From Alphaproteobacteria bacterium (GTDB taxonomy: Bacteria; Pseudomonadota; Alphaproteobacteria; Micavibrionales; UBA2020), in contig JAEUKT010000002.1 in the NCBI GenBank assembly GCA_016794125.1, forward strand, positions 1,177,769 to 1,241,768: a stretch of 64,000 bases of DNA. Reading direction: 5' to 3'. This document shows, piece by piece, positions 3,639 through 49,837 of this stretch. The translations under genes and the position numbers were made by a program. Below the pieces are notes generated by a model that saw only the letters and a list, made by a program, of their open reading frames with translations, ran no database searches and was not told the origin of the DNA. The first letter of the stretch is position 1. Every line of letters starts with the position of its first letter.

Positions 3639-5654
3639 TTAAACCTTCTTCTTCACCTGCGCCACAATGTCTTCGGCGGTGATGCCGAAGTGTTTGTAGA
3701 GTTCCTGATAGGGGGCGCTTTCGCCGAAGGATTTCATGCCGACGAAGATGCCGTCGCGGCCGATGATGTGGTCCCAGCCCTGACGGACGGCGGCTTCGAC
3801 AGCGACATTCACTTTCGAATTACCAATCAGCGAGGACTGGTATTTGGCATCCTGTTGCGCAAACAATTCCAATGACGGGGCGGAGACGACGCGGGTGGAG
3901 ATTTTGTCAGCCTCCAGCATGTCGCGCGCCTTCAGCGCGATTTCGATTTCGGAACCGGTCGCCCAGATGGTGACGGTGGCATCGCTTGAGCCTTCCGCGA
4001 GGATGTAAGCGCCGCGCTTCGACAGGTTGTCGTCCGACGACTCTTTACGCACCAGCGGCAGGTTCTGGCGCGTCAGCACCAGCACCGAGGGGCCGCTCGT
4101 ATGTTCCAGCGCAATCTGCCATGCTTCCGCCGTTTCAATCACATCGGCAGGGCGCAGGACAAGCAAGTTGGGAATGCAGCGCAGCGCGGCCAGATGTTCC
4201 ACCGGCTGGTGGGTCGGGCCGTCTTCGCCGAGACCGATTGAATCGTGCGTCATGATGTAAATCACGCGCTGCTTCATCAGCGCCGACAGGCGGATGGAGG
4301 GGCGGCAATAATCGGTGAAGCTGAGGAACGTGCCGCCATAGGGGATCAGCCCCTTGTGCAGCGCCATGCCGTTCATGGCAGCCGCCATGCCGTGCTCGCG
4401 CACGCCCCAATAGACGTAACGGCCGGAATAATCTTCCTTCGTCACCTTGCCCATGTCTTTCACAAGCGTCAGGACGGAACCGGTGAGGTCCGCCGAACCG
4501 CCGACCATTTCGGGCAGCGCGGGGATCAGGGCTTCCAAAACTTTGCCGGATGCTGCGCGGGTCGCGATTTTCGGCGCTTCCGCTTTCATCTTGGCCTTGA
4601 ATGTCGAAATGACGGGTGCGACCGTTTTGGTCACATCGCCGCTGATCATGCGGTCGAACAGCGCGCGTTTTTCGCCGTCCAGTTTATCAAGGCGCGCTTG
4701 CCAGTTCTTGCGCTCCATCTGGTGCGCGCTGCCGGTTGCGCGCCATGCGGCCACAACATTTTCGGGCAGGTGGAACGGCACATGCGGCCAGTTCAGGTTC
4801 TTGCGCGCGCCCGTGATTTCTTCGTCGCCCAGCGGCGAGCCGTGGGAGGACGACTTGCCCTCTTTCGTCGGTGCGCCATAGCCGATTTTTGTTTTGCAGG
4901 AAATCAGGCTCGGCTTGTTGGGGTTCAGCTGGGCGGCGGCGATGGCCTTCGCGATCTGTTCGGGATTGTGGCCGTCGACCGTGAAGGTTTCCCAGCCGTA
5001 AGCCTCGAAGCGTTTCGGGGTGTTGTCGGTGAAGGACAGCGATGTCGGGCCGTCGATGGAAATTTCGTTATCGTCGTACAGCACGATCAGCTTGCCAAGG
5101 CCGAGATGGCCGGCGAGGGAGCAGGCCTCGTGGCTGATGCCCTCCATCAAATCGCCGTCGGAGGCGATGACATAGGTGAAGTGATTGAAAATCTCGTTGC
5201 CGAAACGCGCATTCATCATGCGCTCCGCAAGCGCGAAACCCACGCCGTTGGAAATGCCCTGACCCAGCGGGCCGGTGGTGGTTTCGATACCGGCTTCGGG
5301 CATGACTTCGGGGTGGCCGGGGGTCAGGCTGTGCAGCTGGCGGAAATTTTTCAGCTGGTCGAGCGTCATTTTCTCGTAACCCGACAGGTGCAGGATGGAA
5401 TACAGCAGCATCGAGCCATGGCCGGCGGAGAGGATGAAACGGTCGCGGTCGGGCCAGGTCGGGTTCGAGGCGTCATGTTTCATGAACTGGGTAAACAGCA
5501 CAGTCGCAACATCGGCCATGCCCATCGGCATGCCGGGGTGGCCTGAATTCGCCTTTTGCACCGCATCCATCGACAGGGCGCGGAGTGCGTTCGCAAGCTC
5601 GTTATGGCTGGCGGTTGCGGTGGTCTGGGATTTGGCGGCTTGTGCGGATGACAT
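3639..5654 (-). CDS. tkt: Transketolase
   Basis: SGHPGMPMG, RDRFILSAGHGS, SDGDLMEG, GEDGPTHQP. Start revised to 5654 (RBS AAGGAG). Confidence 0.99.
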   Translation of the reverse strand: MSSAQAAKSQTTATASHNELANALRALSMDAVQKANSGHPGMPMGMADVATVLFTQFMKHDASNPTWPDRDRFILSAGHGSMLLYSILHLSGYEKMTLDQLKNFRQLHSLTPGHPEVMPEAGIETTTGPLGQGISNGVGFALAERMMNARFGNEIFNHFTYVIASDGDLMEGISHEACSLAGHLGLGKLIVLYDDNEISIDGPTSLSFTDNTPKRFEAYGWETFTVDGHNPEQIAKAIAAAQLNPNKPSLISCKTKIGYGAPTKEGKSSSHGSPLGDEEITGARKNLNWPHVPFHLPENVVAAWRATGSAHQMERKNWQARLDKLDGEKRALFDRMISGDVTKTVAPVISTFKAKMKAEAPKIATRAASGKVLEALIPALPEMVGGSADLTGSVLTLVKDMGKVTKEDYSGRYVYWGVREHGMAAAMNGMALHKGLIPYGGTFLSFTDYCRPSIRLSALMKQRVIYIMTHDSIGLGEDGPTHQPVEHLAALRCIPNLLVLRPADVIETAEAWQIALEHTSGPSVLVLTRQNLPLVRKESSDDNLSKRGAYILAEGSSDATVTIWATGSEIEIALKARDMLEADKISTRVVSAPSLELFAQQDAKYQSSLIGNSKVNVAVEAAVRQGWDHIIGRDGIFVGMKSFGESAPYQELYKHFGITAEDIVAQVKKKV

Positions 5655-5777
5655 CGTGCATGTGCTCCTTATAAATGCTCCCGCAGAATGCAACATCACC
5701 GGGATTCGCGCAACCATGCAAAACCCTGCGATGCATGTGGAATTATTGTTGATATTGCTGTATATTTCTGAATGTTT

Positions 5778-5806
5778 TTGACATAAAAATGGCCATATTC
5801 TATAAC
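5778..5806 (+). promoter_or_regulatory. Sigma70-like promoter TTGACA-N17-TATAAC
   Basis: Near-consensus hexamers with 17-nt spacer upstream of the orphan ORF at 5843. Confidence 0.6.
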
Positions 5807-5842
5807 TGTCCGGCTGGCTGCCGTTTTTCAAAGGAATTCATC

Positions 5843-6181
5843 ATGGTCATCGGTATCGACGGTTTTCTGCATGAACGCATCGAAACGCTTTATGTATCCG
5901 AGGATCACAAGCTGTTCCTGAAGACGGGGCAGGCACAGACAGAGGGCGGACGACGCGCTTTTGTCAGCATCACGCGCTTTGACGAACTGGATGCGCTGGA
6001 ACGCCAATCCATGCTCCAACAGGCCAAGCCCCTGGACGACAATGCGCGGCTGAAGATATCGACGGTCGATGGCAAAACGGTCGTCTATGACGGTTTCACG
6101 GGGACGAACGCCGTTTTCACGCTCGCCCCGCGCAACGATGCCCCGCCCGCGAAAAAACCGAAGCTCAAATTCAGGCTTTAA
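5843..6181 (+). CDS. Hypothetical protein (112 aa) with basic Pro/Lys C-terminus
   Basis: RBS AAAGGA before ATG 5843; ends PRNDAPPAKKPKLKFRL. Confidence 0.7.
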   Translation: MVIGIDGFLHERIETLYVSEDHKLFLKTGQAQTEGGRRAFVSITRFDELDALERQSMLQQAKPLDDNARLKISTVDGKTVVYDGFTGTNAVFTLAPRNDAPPAKKPKLKFRL

Positions 6182-6232
6182 CACGCATTATACCGTCTTG
6201 CCGTGATGCCCCTGCGGGGATTACCATGACAC

Positions 6233-6493
6233 ATGACCGAAAACACCCCCGATTTCCGCAAGATGACGCCGGAGGATTTGCGCCGGAACATCACCGAGCT
6301 GAACCACCAGATCAAGCGCATGAAGCGCTTCAGCCCCAATGGCTTCGCCTATGAAATCGAACAGGCCGAAGAATTGCGCCGCAAATACAAGACCGTCTGG
6401 CGCGCCCGCCCCGGCCGCGCGTTCCACGATGTCGCCGCGCGCAAGAAAAAGCAGAAAGAAATGAAACGCTATACGCGCGGGCCGCGGTTTTAA
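6233..6493 (+). CDS. Hypothetical basic protein (86 aa)
   Basis: ORF with genome-typical codons, probable coiled N-terminal half; ends RAFHDVAARKKKQKEMKRYTRGPRF. Confidence 0.6.
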   Translation: MTENTPDFRKMTPEDLRRNITELNHQIKRMKRFSPNGFAYEIEQAEELRRKYKTVWRARPGRAFHDVAARKKKQKEMKRYTRGPRF

Positions 6494-7443
6494 GCTTTGG
6501 CCGCCTTGCGCACCGCCCATTTCGCCTTCAGCTTGGCAAACGGTTTTTCCAACTGGTGCCAGACCGGCACGATCGCAAGGCCGATCAGCAATCCCGCCAA
6601 CGTTATGACGATAAGTGAAATCGGTGTATTTAGGTAGGATAGCTCATGGCCATGTTCAAAACCCAAATCTTTCATCGCATGTTCCGCCGCCGGAATGCCG
6701 TGCAGCACGATGCCGCCGCCGACCGAAAACATGGCGGCGGTGCCGACGACCGATAAAGTCTTCATCAGGTACGGCACGCATTTCAAAATGCCGATGCCCA
6801 GTTTCTGCACCGCTTTTTTGGGTTTTTTGGCAAGGTACATCCCAAGGTCATCCAGCTTGATGATGCAACCGACAAGGCCGTACACAAATACGGTCATCCC
6901 GATGCCCACGCCGGTCAGCACGCCCGCCTGTACCCATAGCGTTTTTTCCTTCACCGCGCCCAGCGCGACCGCGACGATTTCGGCGGACAGGATGAAATCG
7001 GTATTCACGGCTTCGGCGATTTTCTTTTGCTCGACCTCCATCAATTCTTCCGCGCTTTTCTGCGCGGCCTGACGCACTTCCTTGGCGTGCGATACGTCCT
7101 CGACCGTCGGCTTCAGCGCATGGATGACTTTTTCCGCGCCTTCGTAGCACAAAAACGCGCCGCCCAGCATCAGCAGCGGCACAATTGCCCATTCCGCGAT
7201 GATGCTCAGGATCAGGGCTGCGGGGATCAGGATGCATTTATTTTTGAAAGAACCTTTTGCGACGCGCCAGACGATGGGCAATTCGCGTTTCGGGTCGATG
7301 CCGACCAGCGCCTGCGCGTTCACGGCAAGGTCGTCGCCCGCTATGCCGGCGGTTTTGGTCGCCGCGACTTTCGACATTGCCGCGACATCGTCGAGCAGCA
7401 GGGTAATATCGTCGAGCAATGCCAGCAAACCGCCAAAGGCCAT
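6490..7443 (-). CDS. DUF808 (YedI-like) membrane protein, canonical-length copy
   Basis: LLALLDDI..LLDDVAAMSKVAATKTAGIAGDDLAVNA, TDFILSAEIV, GTAAMFSVGGGIVLHG. Confidence 0.92.
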   Translation of the reverse strand: MAFGGLLALLDDITLLLDDVAAMSKVAATKTAGIAGDDLAVNAQALVGIDPKRELPIVWRVAKGSFKNKCILIPAALILSIIAEWAIVPLLMLGGAFLCYEGAEKVIHALKPTVEDVSHAKEVRQAAQKSAEELMEVEQKKIAEAVNTDFILSAEIVAVALGAVKEKTLWVQAGVLTGVGIGMTVFVYGLVGCIIKLDDLGMYLAKKPKKAVQKLGIGILKCVPYLMKTLSVVGTAAMFSVGGGIVLHGIPAAEHAMKDLGFEHGHELSYLNTPISLIVITLAGLLIGLAIVPVWHQLEKPFAKLKAKWAVRKAAKA

Positions 7444-7505
7444 GTCAGAATCTCCGTTGTTTTTCTGCGCCTAACCTAACGGATTCCCCTATCGGACAGA
7501 AGTGT

Positions 7506-7541
7506 AAAAAAAACCGCCGGGGCGGTCGAATTCCCCGGCGG
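7506..7541 (-). terminator. Intrinsic terminator between DUF808 copies
   Basis: CCGCCGGGG/CCCCGGCGG stem plus T-run on the minus strand. Confidence 0.75.
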
Positions 7542-7562
7542 CATCATGGTCGTCGTTAAACT

Positions 7563-8738
7563 TTACTTGCCGAAATTGCGGTTCAGCATCTTCTCGAACC
7601 CTTTGAAGGCGGGGGCGGCGGGTTTCACTTCCGCCGGCAATCCGGGCTCTGCCTTGGGCGCTGCGTTGTTCAAGGCTGCCTTCACATCCGGCACCGATTT
7701 CAGTGCGCCAGCCGATGCTTCAGCAACTGGGGCGGCGGGCGCGTTGTCATTGACCGGCACGGGATGCCCATAGACCTTGTGCAGCAGGCTTTTCGCAAAG
7801 CCGGTGACGGGGCCCTTGATTTTCTCGTTGAAGAAATCCTTGGCAAGCCCCGCAAGGTGCATCACCGGTTCTTTCAATACCTTCACCGCGGGGATCGCCA
7901 GCACCCCTGCCACGATACCGGTCGCCATCGTCGCTGCCGTTTCGATCATGCCGACAACCATCGGGCTGTTGCTGGCCAGATGCGCAAGGCCGGTCACGGC
8001 ATGTTCAAGTCCCGGGATGCCATGCATCAAAATCCCGCCGCCGACCGCGAACATCGCGGCGGTGCCAAGGAACGACAGGCCCTTCATCAGGGGCGGCACG
8101 GCCTTGACCAATCCGGTGCCAAAACTCCGCTTGAATTTTGAAAAGCCGTCTTCGCCTTCGGTTTTCGCGAGTTTCAGGCCCCAGTCGTCCAGTTTCACCA
8201 GGCCGCCGACAAGCCCGTAAATGCCGACTGTCATGCCGACGCCAACCGCGGCAAGCGCGCCCAGCTGCGTCAGGAAAGGGGCGGAGGCCATCGCGCCCAG
8301 CGCGACGACGACGATTTCGGCAGAGAGGATAAAATCGGTCTTGATCGCGGCGGCGACCTTTTCGGCCTCCAGCGTTTTCGCGTCTTTCTTCGGCGCGGCC
8401 TCATCTTCGTGCTTGTCCTTGTGCAGCATCTTCTCGACGCCTTCATAGGCAAGGAATGCGCCGCCCGCCATCATCAAGGGCGCAATTGCCCAAGGGGCGA
8501 CGACCGACAGCGCCATTGCGCCGGGGATGAGGTAGAAGAATTTGTTTTTCAGGGAGCCTTTGGCGACCGCCATCACCATCGGTATTTCGCGGCTGGGGTC
8601 GATGCCGCCCGCGCCGCCTGTCAGCACATGGGCATTCACTGCAAGGTCGTCACCGGAGATACCTACTGTTTTGCGCGCGGCGATTTTCGTCAATGCGGCG
8701 ATATCGTCGAGTAGTGCCAGAAGACCGGTGGCGGCCAT
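7563..8738 (-). CDS. DUF808 paralog 2 with C-terminal Pro/Ala/Lys extension
   Basis: LLALLDDIAA..KTVGISGDDLAVNA, TDFILSAEIV, GTAAMFAVGGGILMHG, plus tail ...VNDNAPAAP...PDVKAALNNAAPKAEPG... Confidence 0.9.
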   Translation of the reverse strand: MAATGLLALLDDIAALTKIAARKTVGISGDDLAVNAHVLTGGAGGIDPSREIPMVMAVAKGSLKNKFFYLIPGAMALSVVAPWAIAPLMMAGGAFLAYEGVEKMLHKDKHEDEAAPKKDAKTLEAEKVAAAIKTDFILSAEIVVVALGAMASAPFLTQLGALAAVGVGMTVGIYGLVGGLVKLDDWGLKLAKTEGEDGFSKFKRSFGTGLVKAVPPLMKGLSFLGTAAMFAVGGGILMHGIPGLEHAVTGLAHLASNSPMVVGMIETAATMATGIVAGVLAIPAVKVLKEPVMHLAGLAKDFFNEKIKGPVTGFAKSLLHKVYGHPVPVNDNAPAAPVAEASAGALKSVPDVKAALNNAAPKAEPGLPAEVKPAAPAFKGFEKMLNRNFGK

Positions 8739-8877: not shown

Positions 8878-8906
8878 TTGACATAATTACAATGCAATGA
8901 TAAAAC
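8878..8906 (+). promoter_or_regulatory. Sigma70-like promoter TTGACA-N17-TAAAAC
   Basis: Near-consensus hexamers with 17-nt spacer upstream of the ORF at 8954. Confidence 0.55.
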
Positions 8907-24989: not shown

Positions 24990-25003
24990 GAATTCGCGAA
25001 ACC

Positions 25004-25513
25004 TTACGCTTTCGGGGGCTTCGGTGCTTCCGGTGCCTTGGGCGGGGTTTTCGGTTTGGTCGCATCCGTGTCGGGCACGACGGGCGCGATGAGGTCGAGG
25101 AGGCTGGAGCCGGTCGAGGGTTTGGTGTCCGCGTCTTTTTTCAGCTCTTCCAGTTTCGCGCCGGCGGCAAGGCCGCCTTCGATCGCTTTGTCTTTTGCCA
25201 CGTTGAACGCGCCGGTGATGGCGTCGCCCGCGATGCCCGCCACGCCGTCGATTTTCTCGGCCAGCGGTTTCGCTTTTTCGGCGAGGTCGCCGATTTTCAC
25301 GGCGGCGGCGTCGGTCACGGCTTCGATCCTGTCATTCACTTCGTTCGCGGTCGCGAGGCCTTTTTGCGCGAGCTTGATGGCGGCGGCGGTGCGCTTCATC
25401 TTTTTCTCGTTCGCTTCTTTCTTGGCCGCGCGGATTTTCGCGGGATCGGTTTCTTCCTTCAGGTGGTCTTCGGCTTTTTGTTTCAGTTTATCGAGAAAGT
25501 TTTTGATACCCAT
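25004..25513 (-). CDS. Hypothetical Ala/Lys-rich helical protein (169 aa) with PK tail
   Basis: RBS AAAGGGA before MGIKNFLDKLKQ; downstream terminator; ends KPKTPPKAPEAPKPPKA. Confidence 0.8.
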   Translation of the reverse strand: MGIKNFLDKLKQKAEDHLKEETDPAKIRAAKKEANEKKMKRTAAAIKLAQKGLATANEVNDRIEAVTDAAAVKIGDLAEKAKPLAEKIDGVAGIAGDAITGAFNVAKDKAIEGGLAAGAKLEELKKDADTKPSTGSSLLDLIAPVVPDTDATKPKTPPKAPEAPKPPKA

Positions 25514-25598
25514 CTGTGCGGTCCCTTTTCTTATAGAATTTCTGTGTGGAAACAGATTAACACCCACACCCCTTGAGTCAACCAGTTATGGCAATATT

Positions 25599-26213
25599 TC
25601 AGAATAAAGACAGTTGATTATGGTCTTCTGGTAAATCGCTGTTCGCGGGGCGCTGGAATTGCCCGGTCGAGGTCAGCATGAATTCCATCGAATCGTCGGC
25701 GCGGAACAGGGCAGGGTCGGGGGCGGCCAGCCAGCGGCGGCAATCATCGACCGTCTGCAAAATCACCGGCATCCGGTCATGGACGGTCGCAACGGCGGGC
25801 ACGGCGGCTGTGGTCAGCACCGCAAAACCGTCGCGCCCGTTGAAGGTATCCCAGATGCCGGCAAAGCCCGTGACGCGCGCGGGCACGATGTCAAACGGCT
25901 GGGGCGGTTTTTGCGTGCGGTCCCATTCAAAGAAACCATCGGCAAGGATAATGCAGCGCCGCGCCTGCACACTGTCGCGGAAGGACGGTTTTTCAAAGAT
26001 CGTTTCGGAACGGCAATTGACCAGCGGCTTGCCCTCCCTCGCCCAGCGCGGGACATAGCCCCAATAAAGATGCTCGATGGAATCGGCGCGGATGACGGGC
26101 AGGGATGTGCCGGGGGTGGCCACACCTGCTGCATCCACAAAACGCGGCATTTTGATGCCGAAACGGTCGGCCAGTTCCTGCAAAGCAGCGATTTGTTTAT
26201 AGCGCCCGCACAT
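25599..26213 (-). CDS. SOS response-associated peptidase (SRAP/YedK, abasic-site protecting)
   Basis: MCGRY N-terminus (catalytic Cys2), NCRSET, DGFFEW, HDRMPVIL. Start revised to 26213. Confidence 0.9.
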   Translation of the reverse strand: MCGRYKQIAALQELADRFGIKMPRFVDAAGVATPGTSLPVIRADSIEHLYWGYVPRWAREGKPLVNCRSETIFEKPSFRDSVQARRCIILADGFFEWDRTQKPPQPFDIVPARVTGFAGIWDTFNGRDGFAVLTTAAVPAVATVHDRMPVILQTVDDCRRWLAAPDPALFRADDSMEFMLTSTGQFQRPANSDLPEDHNQLSLF

Positions 26214-26252
26214 GATATAGTCGCTTTCCAAAATTCGAGAAGGAATAGAGCA

Positions 26253-27275
26253 ATGGCGGACCAAAAGGGCAAGACAATTCTGACAGGCGTGAAGCCCACG
26301 GGCGCGCCGCATATCGGCAATTATATCGGCGCCATCCGCCCCGCGCTGCGCCTTGCCGCAAGCCACGAGAAATCTTACCTGTTCATCGCCGATTACCATG
26401 CGCTGAACGCGGTGTACGATCCAAAAGCGTTGAAGGAAGACAGCTATCAGGTCGCGGCCTGCTGGCTCGCGCTCGGGCTCGATCCCGCGAAAACGGTTTT
26501 GTACCGCCAGTCGGATATTCCGGAGATTCCGGAACTTGTCACGATTTTATCCGCCGTCACGCCCAAGGGCTTGATGGACCGCAGCCATGCGTATAAAGCC
26601 GCGAAGGACCGCAACGCCGAAGAAAACCGCGACCCCGATAACGATGTGAATATGGGCCTCTATACCTATCCGCTGCTGATGGCCGCCGACATCCTGATTG
26701 CGAATACCGATATCGTGCCGGTGGGCAAGGATCAGGTGCAGCACATCGAATTCGCGCGCGACATGGCGGGCTATTTCAACGGCGCGTTTAAGAAAAACGT
26801 GCTGAAGCTGCCCGAATACCAGCTGGAGGCCGGCGGCGCGCTGCTGCCCGGCATCGACGGCCGCAAGATGAGCAAGTCATACGGCAACCATATCCCCGTC
26901 TTCATCGACAGCGCCGCGCGCCGCAAGCTGGTGATGAAAACCGTCACGGATTCCAAACTGCCCGCCGAAGCCAAGAACCCCGATGAAAACGTGATCTTCC
27001 AGATCTACACGCATGTCGGCACGCCGGAAGAAGTGCAGGCGATGCGCGACGCCTTTGAAAAAGGCGGCATGGGCTATGGCGACGCGAAACAGAAATTGTT
27101 CGAGGCGCTGGAACGCAACTTCGAACAGCCCACCGCGAAGTATAACGAGCTGATGGCCGACCGGAAAAAACTGGACGACATTCTGGAGGAAGGCGCAGCC
27201 CGCGCGCGCAAAGTGACGCGCGAGACGCTGTCGAATGTCAGGGAAGCGATTGGGTTGACGCGGCTGCGTAACTAA
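26253..27275 (+). CDS. trpS: Tryptophan--tRNA ligase
   Basis: TGVKPTGAPHIGNYIG (HIGH-like), VPVGKDQVQHIE, KMSKSYGN. Start revised to 26253 (RBS AAGGA). Confidence 0.98.
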   Translation: MADQKGKTILTGVKPTGAPHIGNYIGAIRPALRLAASHEKSYLFIADYHALNAVYDPKALKEDSYQVAACWLALGLDPAKTVLYRQSDIPEIPELVTILSAVTPKGLMDRSHAYKAAKDRNAEENRDPDNDVNMGLYTYPLLMAADILIANTDIVPVGKDQVQHIEFARDMAGYFNGAFKKNVLKLPEYQLEAGGALLPGIDGRKMSKSYGNHIPVFIDSAARRKLVMKTVTDSKLPAEAKNPDENVIFQIYTHVGTPEEVQAMRDAFEKGGMGYGDAKQKLFEALERNFEQPTAKYNELMADRKKLDDILEEGAARARKVTRETLSNVREAIGLTRLRN

Positions 27276-27296
27276 ACACGGGCTTAGGGTGCTGTT

Positions 27297-27644
27297 ATGA
27301 TCGCGTCGATATTTTCTCGGATTTTTTTGAAACGCTATCGAGCTCGATTGCACGGTCAAAATTTTCGCATTCAGTTTGATGGTAAACTAGAAAATGCTTG
27401 TTTTATTACGACTCGTTATATTAGCGCGATGGATGAAACCCAAGCAAAGGAACTAGCCAAAACAGTAGTATTGCACGAGCTTGCGCATCGCCTGAATGTC
27501 GATATCGAACAACAACTCAATTCACGGCAAAATCCCGCGTCGCTCGTTGTCGAAGAAATTTATCAAGTTAAGTGGCGCGCAGGTAGGCTTCGTATTCAGC
27601 GGGGCTTTACCTTCTATGAATGCGAAGATCATAAATCGGAATGA
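27297..27644 (+). CDS. Hypothetical protein in an AT-rich patch (115 aa)
   Basis: Uninterrupted ORF with atypical codons; start uncertain (27297 or 27429). Confidence 0.5.
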   Translation: MIASIFSRIFLKRYRARLHGQNFRIQFDGKLENACFITTRYISAMDETQAKELAKTVVLHELAHRLNVDIEQQLNSRQNPASLVVEEIYQVKWRAGRLRIQRGFTFYECEDHKSE

Positions 27645-27688
27645 TCCCTAATAAAAAATACATATATTTCAGTAATTTAATCCATATA

Positions 27689-27717
27689 TTGACATAACAA
27701 GTCATATCCCGTATCCT
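27689..27717 (+). promoter_or_regulatory. Sigma70-like promoter TTGACA-N17-TATCCT
   Basis: Near-consensus hexamers with 17-nt spacer upstream of 27751. Confidence 0.55.
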
Positions 27718-27750
27718 CCGCGCAACCTCAAAACCAGCGAGCCGAGAGCC

Positions 27751-28902
27751 ATGAAATTCGAAGACACCAGCCTGTTGCGTCACCCGACCGTCGAGAAGGC
27801 GTATAACGTCATGCGCACATTTTTTACCGATGGCGACGACTGGGCGCGGGAAGCGGTGCGGGTCGGCGAGATCATCACGGCCAATGCCAAGAACCCCGAC
27901 CCCGATGCGATCGCGGCGAGTGTGCTGATGAACGGCATGGTTATTCCGTATGAGGCGGAGCAGTTCGAACAGTCTGTGTCCCCCCGCGCGGCGGATTACC
28001 TGAAAAAATTCTACGAACTCGACCTCGAAAACCCGAAATTCTCGACCGCGGGCGAACAGCAGGTGTTGCTGGCGACCTCCGTCATTGGCCTTCAGGCCGT
28101 GCAGGCGAAAATCGCCGCCGGCGAAGTGGCGCATATCATCGAATACCGCAATGTCAGCCGCGTGATCGACATGAACGAACGCAGCCTCGCCGAAATCGCG
28201 CGCGACGGCACGACGGAAACCGAAATGCTGCAGGCCGCGCAAACGGCCTTGGTCGGCGCGCAAACCGCGCTGGCGGGCGTTGTCGCGCAGCGCGTAAACG
28301 AATTGAAATTCGAAAACACCGGTCTGCCGGACCACCCGACCATCCGCAGCGTGTACGAAGACATGAAGGCATGGGCATTCGATGGCGACCCGCTGGGCGG
28401 CTATGCCCAGACAAATGCCGCGATTGCCAAAGTCGTGGCCGACAGCGTTTCCAGCGATCCCGAAGTGATCGCGGCGGCGCTCCTGAACCAGTACAGCACC
28501 CTGCGCCCCGGCCATAAAAAGCCCGAAGATTTCGGTGCGCGCATTGCCGAATTGTGGGAACAATCTTCCCCCTGGGCGCGCATGAGCAGCGAAGACGACG
28601 CAAAACAGCCGAAAACGCCGGAGGCGCTTGCCATCCGTCAGGCGGCGCGCCTGTACTTCCTTGAAGGCCAGATCGAATGGATGAATTCGGCCAAGGGCAT
28701 GGAACAAGAATCGCGCGTGCAAACGCTGGAACGCCTCGAAGACAGCCGCGATATCGTGGCGCAGGCGGCGGCATCGCAGGATAATGCGGTGTTCAAGGCG
28801 CGGCTTGAAAAGGCGGTCGCGGGCGCGGACGCGCTGATCCACAAGCCCGAAAACGTAAAGATCCGCAAGCCGGGCAGCCCGAAGGTCGATCCGGGTTGGT
28901 AA
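27751..28902 (+). CDS. Two-repeat protein resembling degenerate RelA/SpoT-type HD hydrolase domains
   Basis: Internal duplication MKFEDTSLLRHPTV / LKFENTGLPDHPTI; DPDAIAASVLMNG and DPEVIAAALLNQY..EDFGARIAEL align with HD_4 AAxLHD..FG..VA, with the HD residues lost. Confidence 0.75.
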   Translation: MKFEDTSLLRHPTVEKAYNVMRTFFTDGDDWAREAVRVGEIITANAKNPDPDAIAASVLMNGMVIPYEAEQFEQSVSPRAADYLKKFYELDLENPKFSTAGEQQVLLATSVIGLQAVQAKIAAGEVAHIIEYRNVSRVIDMNERSLAEIARDGTTETEMLQAAQTALVGAQTALAGVVAQRVNELKFENTGLPDHPTIRSVYEDMKAWAFDGDPLGGYAQTNAAIAKVVADSVSSDPEVIAAALLNQYSTLRPGHKKPEDFGARIAELWEQSSPWARMSSEDDAKQPKTPEALAIRQAARLYFLEGQIEWMNSAKGMEQESRVQTLERLEDSRDIVAQAAASQDNAVFKARLEKAVAGADALIHKPENVKIRKPGSPKVDPGW

Positions 28903-28945
28903 AATTCAGGAAATAATGTAGTATCCGTTGCATAAGGTTTTAGTC

Positions 28946-29176
28946 ATGAAAATCGCACTCGCCATTCTCGCCGCTCTCGTTATCGCCACTCCTGCAATCG
29001 CAGACCGTGGCGATGCGAATGACGCGCCGAAAATCGTGATCGCGAAAACCACCTCCGAACAGCGCGCCGTTGCGGAAATCATCTCCGGCCGCCTGCGCTC
29101 GGCACTGGAAAGCGAGCCCTATACGCTCGACATTTCCACGCCCGCGCAAACCAGCGACATATCGATTAGCCGCTAA
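28946..29176 (+). CDS. Small secreted hypothetical protein (76 aa)
   Basis: Signal peptide MKIALAILAALVIATPAIA. Confidence 0.65.
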   Translation: MKIALAILAALVIATPAIADRGDANDAPKIVIAKTTSEQRAVAEIISGRLRSALESEPYTLDISTPAQTSDISISR

Positions 29177-29347
29177 ATAACCCGTCCTTCGCCTGACTTC
29201 GCGTTTCACCCCCCGCGCAAGCAGCGGCGGGGGCGAAAACTGTTGCGCAAACACAAGGAAATGACGTTATGAAAATAATTAGATGATAGACCCAAAAAGC
29301 TAATTCAGGCATTTTGCTAAGTGATTTTTGCATCCCAGAGGAACACC

Positions 29348-32215
29348 ATGACCATCGACTACGGCAACACCATCCACCTTCCGAAAACCGACTTCCCGCG
29401 CCGCGCCGGACTTGCGCAGCTGGAGCCGAAAATCCAGAAGCGGTGGGCGGATATGGACCTCTATAAAAAGCAGCGCGAGGCGTCGAAAGACCGCGAGACG
29501 TTTATCCTGCATTTCGGCCCTCCATTCGCCAACGGGCATATCCATCTTGGCCACCTGCTGTCGAAAACGCTGAAGGATTTCGTGACGCGCAGCCAGCAGG
29601 CGACCGGCAAAAACGCGCTGCTGGTGCCCGGCTGGGATTGCCACGGGTTGCCGATCGAATGGAAGATCGAGGAAAAATACCGCGCCGAGGGCAAGAAGAA
29701 GAATGATACCGACGCCGTCGCCTTCCGCGCCGAATGCCGCAATTTCGCGCAGGGCTGGGTCGATGTGCAGAACAGCGAATTCCAGCGCGTGGGCGTGATG
29801 GGCGACTGGAAAAATTACTACAGCACCATGCACCCGACATCGGAAGCCACGATCGCGCAGGAAATCCACAAATTCCTGCTAAACGGCGGATTGTACCGCG
29901 GATCGAAACCCGTCATGTGGTCGATCCCCGAACAAACCGCGCTCGCCGAAGCGGAAGTGGAATACAAGGACGTTACGTCCGACACCGCATGGGTGAAATT
30001 CCCCGTCGCGAAAAAAGGCACGAAATTCCCGGCATCGTTCGACGGCGCATCCGTCGTTATCTGGACGACGACCCCCTGGACGCTGCCCGGCAACCGTGCC
30101 GTCGCCTATGGCAAGGACATTGATTACATCGTTGTGACTGTGTCCTCGGTTGGCGAAGAAGCGCTGGTAAAAGCGGGCGACAAGCTGATCGTCGCATCCG
30201 CGCTGCTGGATGCTTTCCTGAAAAGCGCGAAAATCACCGGCAGCACGCAATCGGAATCTGCCAAGGGCGAAGCGTTCGAAGGCACGATCTGCCATCACGC
30301 GCTGCACGGCAAGGGCTACGAATTCGACGTGCCGATGCTCGAAGGCGATTTCGTCACGACCGATGCGGGTACGGGTTTCGTGCATATCGCGCCGGGTCAT
30401 GGCGAGGACGATTACCGCCTCGGCCTGAAAAACCATATTGAAGTGCCGCATACCGTGAAGGGCGATGGCACGTATTTCGAAGACGTGCCGCTCTTCGCTG
30501 GCATCCCCGTCTATCTGCCCGACGGCAAAAAAGGCTGGGCGAATAAAACCGTGCTGAAGGAAATCACAGAGTCCGGCAACCTTGTGGCCAAGGCGCAGAT
30601 CCAGCACAGCTATCCGCATTCGTGGCGTTCAAAAGCGCCCGTGATCTTCCGCAACACGCCGCAATGGTTTATCTCGATGGAGAAAAACGACCTGCGCGCG
30701 AAGGCGCTGTCGGAAATCAAGAAAACGCGCTGGATCCCCGCGCGCGGCGAAAACCGCATCGCGGCGATGGTGGAGCAGCGCGGTGATTGGTGCGTATCCC
30801 GCCAGCGCGCCTGGGGCGTACCCATCGCGATCTTCGTGAACAAGAAAACGAACGAGCCGCTGAAGGACGAAAAAGTCCTGAAAAACATCATCGATATCTT
30901 CAACAAGGAAGGATCGGATGCGTGGTTCGCGCGTCCTGCTTCGGATTTCCTTGGTGCTGGTTATAACGCTGACGATTTCGAACAGGTGAAGGACATCATC
31001 GACGTCTGGTTTGAATCGGGCTCCACCCAAGGCTTCGTGCTGGAAAACCGTCCCGACCTGCACCGCCCCGCCGACCTTTATCTGGAAGGCTCGGACCAGC
31101 ATCGCGGCTGGTTCCAGTCATCCTTGCTGGTCGGCTGCGGCACGCGCGGCGACGCACCGTTCAAGGCTGTTTTGACGCACGGTTTCATCCTCGACGAAAA
31201 AGGCTACAAGATGTCCAAAAGCACGGGCAACGTGACATCGCCCAACGCGCTGATGGAAAAATACGGCGCGGATGTGATGCGCCTCTGGGTCGCGGGTTCG
31301 GATTACACCGAAGACATCAAGTTCGGTGAAAACATCCTGTCCGGCCATGTCGATATCTATCGCCGCATCCGCAACACCTTCTGCTATCTGCTGGGTTCGG
31401 TCACGGGCTTCAAGGCATCGGATCGTCTTGCGTATGACAAGCTTGGCGATTTCGACAAGTGGGTGCTGCACCGCCTGTATGAAATCGACCAGACCGTGCG
31501 CCAATGCGTGAATGATTTCGATTTCCTGAAACTGACGACCGTGGTGCATAACTTCTGCGCGCGCGACCTGTCGGCTTTCTATTTCGATGTGTGCAAGGAC
31601 ACGCTGTATTGCGAAGCGACCGGCAGCGACAAGCGCCGCGGCGTGCTGACGGTGCTGGACCATGTGTTCAACCACCTTGTGCATTGGTTGTCGCCCGTGC
31701 TGGTCTATACGACCGAAGAAGCATGGCTGTCGTATAAGGGCCTGACGCTGGACGACGCGAAGGAAAGCATCCACCTGTCCACCATGCCCGTCGCGCCGAA
31801 AGAATGGCTGAATGCCGACCTTGCCGTGAAATGGGACAAGATCGCGGCCGTGCGCGGCGTGGTCACCGGCGCGCTGGAAATCAAGCGCGCGGAAAAACAG
31901 ATCGGCGCGTCGCTGGAGGCATCGCCGCAGGTGTTCGTGGCCGATACCGCATTGGCGGGCGTGCTGAAAAGCATTTCCTTCGCCGATGTCTGCATCACAT
32001 CGGGCATCGATGTGCAGCATGGCGCGGCACCCGCCGGCGCATTCACGCTGCAGGGCGTGGAGGGCGTATCGGTCGTGTTCCACAAGGCAGAGGGCGCGAA
32101 ATGCGAGCGTTGCTGGCGATATACCGGCGATGTGGGCAGCAACGCGCACCATGCCGGCATCTGCGCCCGTTGCGCGGAAGTCGTTGAACGCGAACATAAA
32201 TCCGCCGCCGCGTAA
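29348..32215 (+). CDS. ileS: Isoleucine--tRNA ligase
   Basis: PPFANGHIHLGH, PGWDCHGLPIE, WTTTPWTLP, EGSDQHRGWF, KMSKS, C-terminal CERCW..CARC zinc finger. Confidence 0.99.
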   Translation: MTIDYGNTIHLPKTDFPRRAGLAQLEPKIQKRWADMDLYKKQREASKDRETFILHFGPPFANGHIHLGHLLSKTLKDFVTRSQQATGKNALLVPGWDCHGLPIEWKIEEKYRAEGKKKNDTDAVAFRAECRNFAQGWVDVQNSEFQRVGVMGDWKNYYSTMHPTSEATIAQEIHKFLLNGGLYRGSKPVMWSIPEQTALAEAEVEYKDVTSDTAWVKFPVAKKGTKFPASFDGASVVIWTTTPWTLPGNRAVAYGKDIDYIVVTVSSVGEEALVKAGDKLIVASALLDAFLKSAKITGSTQSESAKGEAFEGTICHHALHGKGYEFDVPMLEGDFVTTDAGTGFVHIAPGHGEDDYRLGLKNHIEVPHTVKGDGTYFEDVPLFAGIPVYLPDGKKGWANKTVLKEITESGNLVAKAQIQHSYPHSWRSKAPVIFRNTPQWFISMEKNDLRAKALSEIKKTRWIPARGENRIAAMVEQRGDWCVSRQRAWGVPIAIFVNKKTNEPLKDEKVLKNIIDIFNKEGSDAWFARPASDFLGAGYNADDFEQVKDIIDVWFESGSTQGFVLENRPDLHRPADLYLEGSDQHRGWFQSSLLVGCGTRGDAPFKAVLTHGFILDEKGYKMSKSTGNVTSPNALMEKYGADVMRLWVAGSDYTEDIKFGENILSGHVDIYRRIRNTFCYLLGSVTGFKASDRLAYDKLGDFDKWVLHRLYEIDQTVRQCVNDFDFLKLTTVVHNFCARDLSAFYFDVCKDTLYCEATGSDKRRGVLTVLDHVFNHLVHWLSPVLVYTTEEAWLSYKGLTLDDAKESIHLSTMPVAPKEWLNADLAVKWDKIAAVRGVVTGALEIKRAEKQIGASLEASPQVFVADTALAGVLKSISFADVCITSGIDVQHGAAPAGAFTLQGVEGVSVVFHKAEGAKCERCWRYTGDVGSNAHHAGICARCAEVVEREHKSAAA

Positions 32216-49285: not shown

Positions 49286-49837
49286 TTACGGCTTCATCCC
49301 GAACTTCTGCGCGCCTTTCGCATAGACCTTATCAAACTCGCCCTCCAGCCCCGCATTCACGCCGCGCAACCCGTCGACCACGTTCTTCGCCCAGCTGAAA
49401 TATTCCTGCTTGCGCGCGAGGCTCCAGTCGGGCGGCGGGGAGTCGAGGATGGCGCGGAGGTTGGAGATTTTGTCGGCGGTCTTTACCAGCTTCGCCGCGT
49501 CCGATTTATGCGGCGCGTGTTCGACCTGCAAACGCTTGCGCTCCGCCTTCGGCAATGATTTGTCATCCGTACATTCCTGCACGATATCAGCGACGTTCTG
49601 GCCGAATTCCTTCACCAGTTCCGCGTATTTCGTATCGGTGTCCTCGATCGTGTCATGCAGCACGGCGGCGCAGAGCGCATCGGCGTCCTTGCCGTCGGTG
49701 AATTGCGCGACAAGGTCGGCAACCTCGATCAGGTGGTTGACATAGGGCTCGGCGCGTTCGCCCTTGCGGCGCTGGTCGGTGTGTTTTTTGGCGGCAAACA
49801 ACAATGCGCGCGTCAGTTTCTGCGAAACTTCGGTCAT
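49286..49837 (-). CDS. Small alarmone hydrolase-like HD protein (Mesh1/HD_4)
   Basis: AAKKHTDQRRK..EPYVNHL, AAVLHDTIEDT, LVKTADKISNL; catalytic motifs intact. Confidence 0.93.
   Translation of the reverse strand: MTEVSQKLTRALLFAAKKHTDQRRKGERAEPYVNHLIEVADLVAQFTDGKDADALCAAVLHDTIEDTDTKYAELVKEFGQNVADIVQECTDDKSLPKAERKRLQVEHAPHKSDAAKLVKTADKISNLRAILDSPPPDWSLARKQEYFSWAKNVVDGLRGVNAGLEGEFDKVYAKGAQKFGMKP

Follow-up and report, generated by a model that had tools for sequence, protein, structure and literature searches.

Introduction

Small alarmone hydrolases (SAHs), which normally break down the starvation signal ppGpp, are built on the RelA/SpoT hydrolase fold (Pfam HD_4, PF13328), the motifs of which are an Arg in HD1, a His in HD2, a His-Asp pair in HD3, a Glu-Asp pair in HD4, an Asp with Lys or Arg in HD5 and an Asn in HD6, with HD2, HD3 and HD5 holding a Mn2+ ion (PMC9293644). 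The HD1 Arg stacks on the base, HD4 serves in nucleophilic attack and the HD6 Asn makes a base contact. SAHs dimerise, via their N-terminal helices (PMC9293644), and the ligands recorded for the fold range over (p)ppGpp, (pp)pApp, reduced nicotinamide adenine dinucleotide phosphate (NADPH), 3'-phosphoadenosine 5'-phosphosulfate (PAPS) and the pyrophosphorylated CCA end of tRNA (PDB titles; bioRxiv 10.1101/2021.04.30.441581), the last being accepted as a substrate by active SAHs (bioRxiv 10.1101/2021.04.30.441581). The present work concerns a 64,000-nucleotide stretch of an alphaproteobacterial contig (JAEUKT010000002.1), referred to as the window, and within it a coding sequence at 27751..28902 on the plus strand, which begins with ATG and encodes 383 amino acids plus a stop. 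Its product is very probably a head-to-tail fusion of two folds of the RelA/SpoT hydrolase type, and in both of them the catalytic residues have been replaced; it is called here a tandem pseudo-SAH protein.

Inactive and stand-alone versions of the fold have been described separately. The pseudo-hydrolase domain of RelA acts as a regulatory switch (PMC8012599). SAH antitoxins of toxSAS systems, for example ATfaRel, are catalytically active and require this activity, as the D54A mutant indicates (PMC7229694), in a report where an updated classification of RelA/SpoT homologues (RSH) is also given that lists 11 SAH subfamilies.

Fold and internal duplication

An internal duplication had been suspected in the preliminary description of this DNA, and comparison of the halves bears it out. 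BLASTP aligns residues 1–184 with 185–383 at an E-value of 4e-9 (32% identity), and hhalign matches the profiles of the two halves, each built from 30 homologues, with a probability of 95.7% (E 8.6e-9, 114 columns). The AlphaFold2 model of the full protein is all helical, with a mean predicted local distance difference test (pLDDT) score of 93.3 and a predicted template modelling (pTM) score of 0.84, and would correspond to a rigid, two-lobed molecule. Modelled helices of half 1 span residues 12–22, 29–45, 51–62, 78–88, 100–122, 129–151 and 157–184, while those of half 2, after subtraction of 184, span 12–28, 33–48, 53–60, 79–88, 106–129, 135–157 and 162–179, so that model and profile alignment place the halves in correspondence helix for helix, one to one. 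Repeat 1 (amino acids 1–184, 27751..28302, plus strand) is a domain of the SAH fold in which hydrophobic residues fill the former active site, and repeat 2 (amino acids 185–363, 28303..28839, plus strand) is one in which the former metal site holds polar residues that do not bind metal. The sequence strings quoted in the preliminary description (DPDAIAASVLMNG, DPEVIAAALLNQY, EDFGARIAELW and ALAIRQAARLYFL) are all present in the translation of 27751..28902.

That the duplicated unit follows the hydrolase scaffold is supported by structure comparison, profile alignment, the family profile and a bridging sister family, which agree on tandem SAH folds. In a Foldseek search of the PDB with the full model, SAHs score best (probability 0.97–0.99, target-normalised TM scores of 0.54–0.59), the matches including RelH (7qod), MESH1 (9chy, 3nr1, 5vxa), the Pseudomonas aeruginosa SAH (PaSAH) and the N-terminal regions of Rel; HD and (p)ppGpp hydrolase proteins are likewise among the best matches of the full model in a viral structure library. 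Half 1 modelled alone reaches a pLDDT of 93.7, its best 10 Foldseek matches in the PDB are all SAH or Rel, and against RelH (7qod) it gives TM scores of 0.68/0.65 at a probability of 1.00. The fold of half 2 was assessed by profile only, that of half 1 by both a separate model and a profile. Against an alignment of SAHs, hhalign in local mode (global mode gave distorted alignments) matches half 2 with a probability of 75% (E 2.5e-5, 96 columns, in register) and half 1 with an E-value of 0.007 in the same register, which is also that of the MESH1 alignment obtained by profile search of the PDB. The expectation that both halves are HD-like is thus borne out for half 1 by its SAH-like model and for half 2 by its SAH-like profile; that they can be superimposed is suggested by the pairing of their helices in profile and model.

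Single-sequence comparisons yield far less. Pfam HD_4 covers only one stretch of the protein (amino acids 218–286, E 0.0024, 18 bits, below the 27.2-bit cut-off) and is found, even sub-threshold, in only 3 of 30 homologues; phmmer against the PDB returned noise only (SlyA and myosin light chain, E > 0.2), NCBIfam gave only two far-sub-threshold matches, and hhalign against the single SAH sequence of the window is weak (probability 3.7%). The family profile, searched against 1.84 billion representative proteins, found 71 proteins at E <= 0.001, three of which (E 1.1e-4 to 3.2e-4) are genuine HD_4 proteins: a pair of SAHs and a long RSH that carries RelA_SpoT and TGS domains. Furthermore, 10 of the 19 members of a two-repeat sister family, termed A3, match Pfam HD_4 (best score 33.8 bits, cut-off 27.2), and the A3 profile matches the target at an E-value of 4e-27. 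Because A3 passes the HD_4 cut-off and its profile matches the target, it bridges the target family and HD_4.

Loss of the catalytic residues

Equivalents of the hydrolase residues (MESH1 numbering) were taken from the hhalign register and counted over 30 homologues. In half 2, H35 is replaced by T221, H61 by N246, D62 by Q247, D122 by A299 and N126 by F303, with E65 and D66 falling on variable positions (250 and 251). The replacements are themselves frequently retained, with Y218 in 27/30 sequences, T221 in 26/30, N222 in 27/30, N246 and Q247 each in 28/30, A299 in 20/30 and F303 in 25/30. In half 1, H35 corresponds to E34, which is variable, H61 to M/L60, D62 to N/D61, E65 and D66 to V/I (64 and 65), D122 to T/H109 and N126 to G113. 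The remnant of the "HD" helix in repeat 1 (27895..27939, plus strand) reads PDPDAIAASVLMNGM, with MN replacing HD; in repeat 2 (28456..28494, plus strand) it reads DPEVIAAALLNQY, with NQ replacing HD, at the place where the true SAH P0221 has DPEIIAAALLHD.

HD2, HD3, HD4, HD5 and HD6 are accordingly replaced in both repeats across the 30 homologues, in agreement with the earlier observation that the metal-binding HD and the Asp had been lost from both. In a scan of the wider family, the HD dyad occurs only in genuine RSH proteins, one A3 member (P0190) excepted. With the Mn-binding and catalytic motifs gone, the known mechanism of hydrolysis, whether of (p)ppGpp, of NADPH or of pyrophosphorylated tRNA, is, to judge from the sequence, excluded for both repeats.

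Conservation and proposed function

Conservation peaks before helix 1 of each repeat, at helix caps and in the C-terminal segment. The most conserved ten-residue window is LLRHPTVEKA at amino acids 8–17 (0.91), and the five most conserved windows comprise, in addition, PDPDAIAASV (49–58), FENTGLPDHP (187–196, 0.88), DPEVIAAALL (236–245) and IRKPGSPKVD (371–380, 0.82). Two of these belong to a motif, FExTxLxxHP, that lies before helix 1 of each repeat, is common to the whole superfamily and is not found in true SAHs. Its copy in repeat 1 (27757..27801, plus strand) reads FEDTSLLRHPTVEKA, with T6, L8, H11, P12, V14 and A17 invariant; the same motif in repeat 2 (28309..28356, plus strand) reads FENTGLPDHPTIRSVY, doubles as the linker between the repeats and has F187, G191, L192, P193 and P196 invariant. 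A conserved, net basic C-terminal segment follows (28840..28899, plus strand, ..HKPENVKIRKPGSPKVDPGW). Its RKPGSP..GW pattern is present in all orthologues, including one at 27% identity (..HAPENTAMRKPGTPKPQRGW); it was not found in other open reading frames (ORFs) of the loci examined, and the tail peptide has no match in the PDB. The last 24 amino acids have an isoelectric point (pI) of 9.5, compared with 4.96 for the whole protein, so the basic tail noted at the outset is real. Residues 371–380 have a pLDDT of about 90 and are probably packed on the body of the modelled protein, which speaks against a free docking tail.

Taken together, the best overall explanation is a non-catalytic binding protein, whether sensor, buffer or adaptor, built as a covalent SAH pseudo-dimer, an explanation adopted here tentatively and as somewhat short of an even chance. 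The pseudo-dimer follows from the fact that free SAHs are dimers, and a binding protein is the most economical reading because the SAH fold recognises the ligands listed above. The mechanism of binding is put forward with slightly more reserve. The protein would work by binding rather than by catalysis; repeat 2, with the nearly invariant polar set Y218, T221, N222, N246 and Q247 at the former metal site, would offer a candidate pocket in which a phosphorylated nucleotide or the 3' end of a tRNA might bind; repeat 1, hydrophobic at the old site, would be its structural partner; and the N-terminal motifs and the RKPGSP..GW segment would probably hold the lobes together or form an interface for a partner.

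Several observations weigh against this explanation. Positions of the old active site conserved to at least 80% number 4 of 7 in half 2, against a background of 29% (p = 0.11), and 1 of 7 in half 1 (p 0.93), so that enrichment is not significant in either half, and the strongest conservation falls outside the old catalytic motifs. The HD4-equivalent positions 250 and 251 of half 2 vary freely. The HD1 Arg has no equivalent placed by alignment, since local alignments begin past its position and the global alignment has a 10-residue gap there in half 2; R22 (half 1) and K206 (half 2) lie in its vicinity. Finally, the protein remains below the Pfam HD_4 cut-off. With no significant enrichment at the old active site, the argument for a pocket is only suggestive, and protein-protein contacts or a purely structural role would explain the pattern of conservation no less well than a nucleotide pocket does.

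This is where the principal rival enters, namely a scaffold or adaptor without any small-molecule ligand, for which the HD fold would be a helical chassis and contacts would be made by the N-terminal motifs and the C-terminal segment. In its favour are the top five windows, made up of both N-terminal motifs, the helix cap that precedes the lost HD in each repeat, and the RKPGSP segment; the p-value of 0.11 at the old active site suits it, as does an N-terminal motif that defines the whole superfamily down to its single-repeat forms. It does not account for T221, N222, N246 and Q247, which are 87–93% conserved as polar residues, an outcome not expected of a filled-in relic, and on balance it is considered unlikely, though worth serious consideration.

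The gene, its distribution and the intact SAH of the window

The tandem pseudo-SAH, an acidic and soluble protein, is encoded by a real gene, vertically inherited and under purifying selection in a Micavibrio-related alphaproteobacterial clade. It is regarded as a core gene because its G+C content at third codon positions (GC3) resembles that of its neighbours (0.76 for the plus frame, 0.77 for trpS and 0.76 for ileS), its trpS and ileS flanks are constant and its promoter is conserved. An antisense ORF of 411 amino acids (27607..28842, minus strand) is longer than the gene and covers it almost completely, and an automatic gene caller could choose it by length. It was rejected as a shadow, given a GC3 of 0.62 and the fact that homologues were sought and found for the plus frame.

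Full-length homologues number 43, at 34–95% identity. All are unnamed or "hypothetical", all derive from metagenome-assembled genomes (MAGs) of uncultured organisms, and they are labelled as Alphaproteobacteria or uncultured Micavibrio, apart from two likely mislabels. The latter are a "Bdellovibrionales bacterium" (L006, JBBRVE010000046.1) and a "Patescibacteria group bacterium" (L008, DASPMW010000039.1), with orthologues 88% and 81% identical, respectively. Both carry the order SRAP, trpS, gene, orf82, ileS seen in the alphaproteobacterial MAGs; a mistaken taxonomic label, or mis-binning of the contig, is probable in each case.

The HD protein used for comparison in the preliminary description is genuine. 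It is a MESH1-like SAH of 183 amino acids on the minus strand (49286..49837), scores 71 bits with Pfam HD_4 in addition to matching HD, possesses all HD2–HD6 residues in MESH1 numbering and is 74% identical to the SAH of a Micavibrio sp. MAG. It is the sole other match of the repeat hidden Markov models (HMMs) in the window, and the same scan of the 64 kb found no further copies of the pseudo-SAH family. Its presence raises the question of whether the pseudo-SAH might regulate the cell's own alarmone enzymes, pairing with this intact SAH or with a long Rel/SpoT and tuning its activity, by analogy with inactive paralogues elsewhere and with the dead domain of RelA. SAHs do dimerise through N-terminal helices that could support such pairing (PMC9293644), the intact SAH shares the window and, in a related MAG, the contig (P0017 and P0068), and the RelA pseudo-hydrolase domain is a precedent for a regulatory switch (PMC8012599). 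A fused pseudo-dimer, on the other hand, would normally satisfy its own dimer interface, and the gene adjoins no RSH gene in any locus examined, which leaves this role distinctly improbable.

Gene neighbourhood

Gene order around the pseudo-SAH is fixed. The arrangement SRAP (minus), trpS (plus), gene (plus), optionally orf82 (plus), and ileS (plus) is present in 16/16 species-representative genomes with enough flanking sequence and in one ENA assembly, and the AMP-binding ligase and SRAP genes farther out are common to the window and distant loci. Over this range the pseudo-SAH diverges to 27% identity, while the tryptophanyl- and isoleucyl-tRNA synthetases stay above 60%.

The constant location of the gene, flanked by trpS and ileS in all genomes examined even where protein identity falls to 27%, together with the acceptance of the pyrophosphorylated tRNA CCA end by active SAHs (bioRxiv 10.1101/2021.04.30.441581), would suit a factor linked to tRNA or aminoacyl-tRNA synthetases, that is, a dead SAH binding the 3' CCA end or a synthetase. 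Such a link is a little less probable again than the regulatory role discussed above. With a promoter of its own directly past the trpS stop, the gene has no need of co-transcription, a conserved order within a narrow clade can be purely historical, an acidic protein (pI about 5) would be unusual as an RNA binder, and paralogous families reside in unrelated contexts.

Other features of the neighbourhood were recorded in passing. orf82 (28928..29176, plus strand) lies 26 nt past the stop of the gene and encodes 82 amino acids with a signal-peptide-like N-terminus; by tblastn it is downstream of the gene in 15/17 distinct loci, and no Pfam family was found for it. Where other genes sit between the pseudo-SAH gene and orf82, the latter has its own TTGACATAA promoter, a sequence described below. 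Between trpS and the promoter of the pseudo-SAH gene is an AT-rich ORF of 115 amino acids (27297-27644, plus strand) with a GC3 of 0.38, compared with about 0.76 for the neighbours. Its sole counterpart is in the closest relative, L004 (61% identity); it has no family match and probably represents either a recent insertion or no gene at all. The SRAP (YedK-type) gene (25599-26210, minus strand) is divergent from trpS; the mechanical ORF call reaches 26399, and the true start is probably 26210 because the Pfam domain begins at MCGRY. Its C-terminus, ..NQLSLF, resembles a sliding-clamp-binding motif. No Rfam RNA elements were found in 25000–30000.

Sister families in the same genomes

The pseudo-SAH has hitherto undescribed relatives with one or two repeats in the same genomes. 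Single-repeat forms of 200–280 amino acids include P0044, P0185 and the product of L021 7932-8648 (plus strand), which shares a genome with the orthologue L012. Family A3 has two repeats in 415–494 amino acids (P0187 and P0232), and A3 member P0232 and orthologue P0019 occur in the same MAG, both with EPN97 locus tags. The A3 neighbourhood, with Peptidase_M20 and Peptidase_M50, is conserved and distinct from the trpS/ileS site; in L022 two adjacent A3-type genes (5473-6795 and 7001-8383, both plus strand) lie between the two peptidase genes. A further paralogous pseudo-SAH gene is found in L023 (7001-8293, plus strand).

The N-terminal motif is common to all sister families, and Pro/Lys-rich tails are found in most of their members. 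They lack the HD dyad, except for the first repeat of P0190, which still reads AALLHD. They resemble the target in the FxxTGLPxxP motif, the xPxxIAAALL helix without HD, the Pro/Lys-rich ends and the type of promoter, and differ from it in genomic position, in tails that often read GPxL or FDLD and in being closer to HD_4. As for the order of repeat types in the target and in A3, HMM assignments are inconsistent between members and the order may be swapped.

Promoter and C-terminal tails

On the evidence of its bases, the pseudo-SAH gene is provided with its own promoter directly past the trpS stop (27689..27717, plus strand), consisting of a TTGACA(TAA) -35 element, a 17-nt spacer and a TATCCT -10 element, 33 nt before the ATG; it scores 10/12 in a consensus scan. 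The promoter proposed in the preliminary description, TTGACATA, is the -35 box of this TTGACA-17-TATCCT arrangement and proves to be conserved: TTGACATAA is located 43–101 nt upstream of the start codon in 16/18 orthologous loci, down to 27% protein identity, in intergenic DNA that is otherwise not alignable between loci. Over 32 sites the consensus is TTGACATAA-N14-TAnnnT.

The same string is widespread in these genomes. The 9-mer occurs 38 times in the 347 kb of window and loci, against about 2.6 expected, and 38/119 TTGACA hexamers have TAA directly after them. In the window it is found at 5778-5786, 8878-8886 and 27689-27697 (all plus strand), the 35 others being in loci L002-L023, and nearly all sites are 25–160 nt upstream of a co-directional ORF. 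Genes behind it include the pseudo-SAH and its paralogues, orf82-like genes, ankyrin-repeat and HEAT-like genes, atpH and many without a Pfam match. A dedicated regulon was considered and is weakened by the presence of the motif upstream of atpH; TTGACATAA looks like the strong sigma-70 promoter type of the clade. A literature search for the promoter string returned unrelated primers only.

Products of the TTGACATAA-promoter genes have, on average, 2.9 Pro in their last 20 amino acids, compared with 1.65 for other genes (p 1e-5), and Pro-rich, net basic tails are present in 14/24 of them as against 41/196 others (Fisher p 2e-4), a statistic that is not independent, as 7/24 of the genes are orthologues of the target. 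Examples are found in the window (5789-6181 and 27751-28902, both plus strand) and in L009 (4616-5479, minus strand), L012 (6629-7882, plus strand) and L023 (406-1488, plus strand).

A bolder proposal is conceivable. The binding protein favoured above could act, without metal, as a receptor or sponge that binds an alarmone-like nucleotide or the modified end of a tRNA, a new class of effector in the (p)ppGpp pathway built from a hydrolase, and, more speculatively, could belong to a lineage-specific set in which the TTGACATAA promoter is combined with a Pro-rich basic C-terminal end as a new kind of export or targeting signal in predatory Micavibrio-like bacteria. This elaboration is improbable as it stands, though it would be the most far-reaching.

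An exported decoy or inhibitor, directed at the RSH enzymes or alarmone signalling of prey or host, was considered as well. The lineage bears a Micavibrio-like label, with cultured members of Micavibrio being predatory, the family has diversified into several paralogous forms peculiar to individual lineages, and genes with the same promoter, one of them encoding an ankyrin-repeat protein, are enriched in Pro-rich basic tails (Fisher p 2e-4). Several findings speak against it. The protein has no RTX repeats, and a sequence and hydropathy check of its 383 amino acids revealed neither a signal peptide nor a membrane helix (hydropathy over 19 residues peaks below 1.6). Its housekeeping neighbourhood is fixed, the same promoter drives atpH, the tail statistic includes the 7 non-independent orthologues, and the tail itself is modelled as packed on the body, with a pLDDT of about 90. 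Secretion was rejected on the lack of a signal peptide or membrane helix, with Cys content unremarkable across the family (0–5). In support of a prey-directed role nothing was found, the evidence is thin, and the idea is very improbable. The least probable reading of all is a neo-enzyme, the active site of which would be new and independent of metal or would have moved elsewhere, for instance to invariant H11/H195, E40 or D50: invariant polar residues do exist outside the classical motifs (H11, E40, D50, D236, S273, E330 and R372), but D50-P51 and D236-P237 correspond to a helix cap that true SAHs possess as well (DPEIIAAALLHD in P0221), positions in the sequence do not by themselves make the case for a catalytic constellation, and no known HD-fold enzyme works without metal ligands (PMC9293644).

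Significance and comparison with known systems

If it is indeed a binding protein, the tandem pseudo-SAH would be a natural "binding-only" hydrolase fold for research into the stringent response, and could show which ligand is recognised by the fold once catalysis has been taken away, be it an alarmone, NADPH, PAPS or the end of a tRNA. It also defines a domain family, marked by a new N-terminal motif, that is missing from current databases, and throughout the clade its gene has been retained at one and the same chromosomal position, with one- and two-repeat relatives in the same genomes. Epibiotic predators of reduced genome size are relatives of this clade, and the retention of several such genes in such company implies a real cost-benefit. 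A practical limit is that all carriers are uncultured MAGs.

To our knowledge, RSH hydrolase domains that have lost catalysis had been recognised only inside RelA-type enzymes, as regulatory modules. No family in Pfam, NCBIfam, PADLOC or PHROGs covers the target, and no literature on stand-alone or tandem pseudo-SAHs was found; with homologues all "hypothetical", the initial impression that this is not a recognised family is upheld. A term search of the RSH classification (PMC7229694) found no mention of dead or tandem SAH forms. A free-standing, duplicated and fully inactivated SAH has apparently not been described before.

Of the systems that come closest, the SAH antitoxins of toxSAS modules are, like the pseudo-SAH, stand-alone proteins of the SAH fold. 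They adjoin the gene of a small alarmone synthetase (SAS) toxin, whereas the pseudo-SAH has no SAS neighbour in the loci examined and no catalytic residues. Assignment as a toxSAS antitoxin was therefore rejected, the neighbours being SRAP, trpS, a small ORF and ileS, with no match in PADLOC and the catalytic residues gone. The pseudo-hydrolase domain of RelA likewise has the RSH hydrolase fold without catalytic residues and a non-catalytic role (PMC8012599). In RelA, however, one dead copy is fused to active synthetase and ribosome-binding domains and acts within its polypeptide, whereas here there are two dead copies. A long RSH of the RelA type was rejected, since the RelA_SpoT and TGS models have no match in the target or in 30 homologues and the 383 amino acids are fully covered by the two HD-fold repeats.

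SAHs themselves (MESH1, RelH of Corynebacterium glutamicum and the P. aeruginosa SAH) are the nearest relatives. The pseudo-SAH has the same all-helical fold in about 180–195 residues per repeat, stands alone without synthetase, TGS or ACT domains and retains residual motifs in register, namely the Y of PYxxH, DPxxIAAALL, FGxxV/FSPRI and the AxLxKxA..L helix. SAHs dimerise, whereas here two copies are fused; and it is this tandem fusion, together with the replaced HD2–HD6, the additional FExTxLxxHP and RKPGSP..GW motifs and a score below the Pfam gathering threshold, that sets the protein apart from them.

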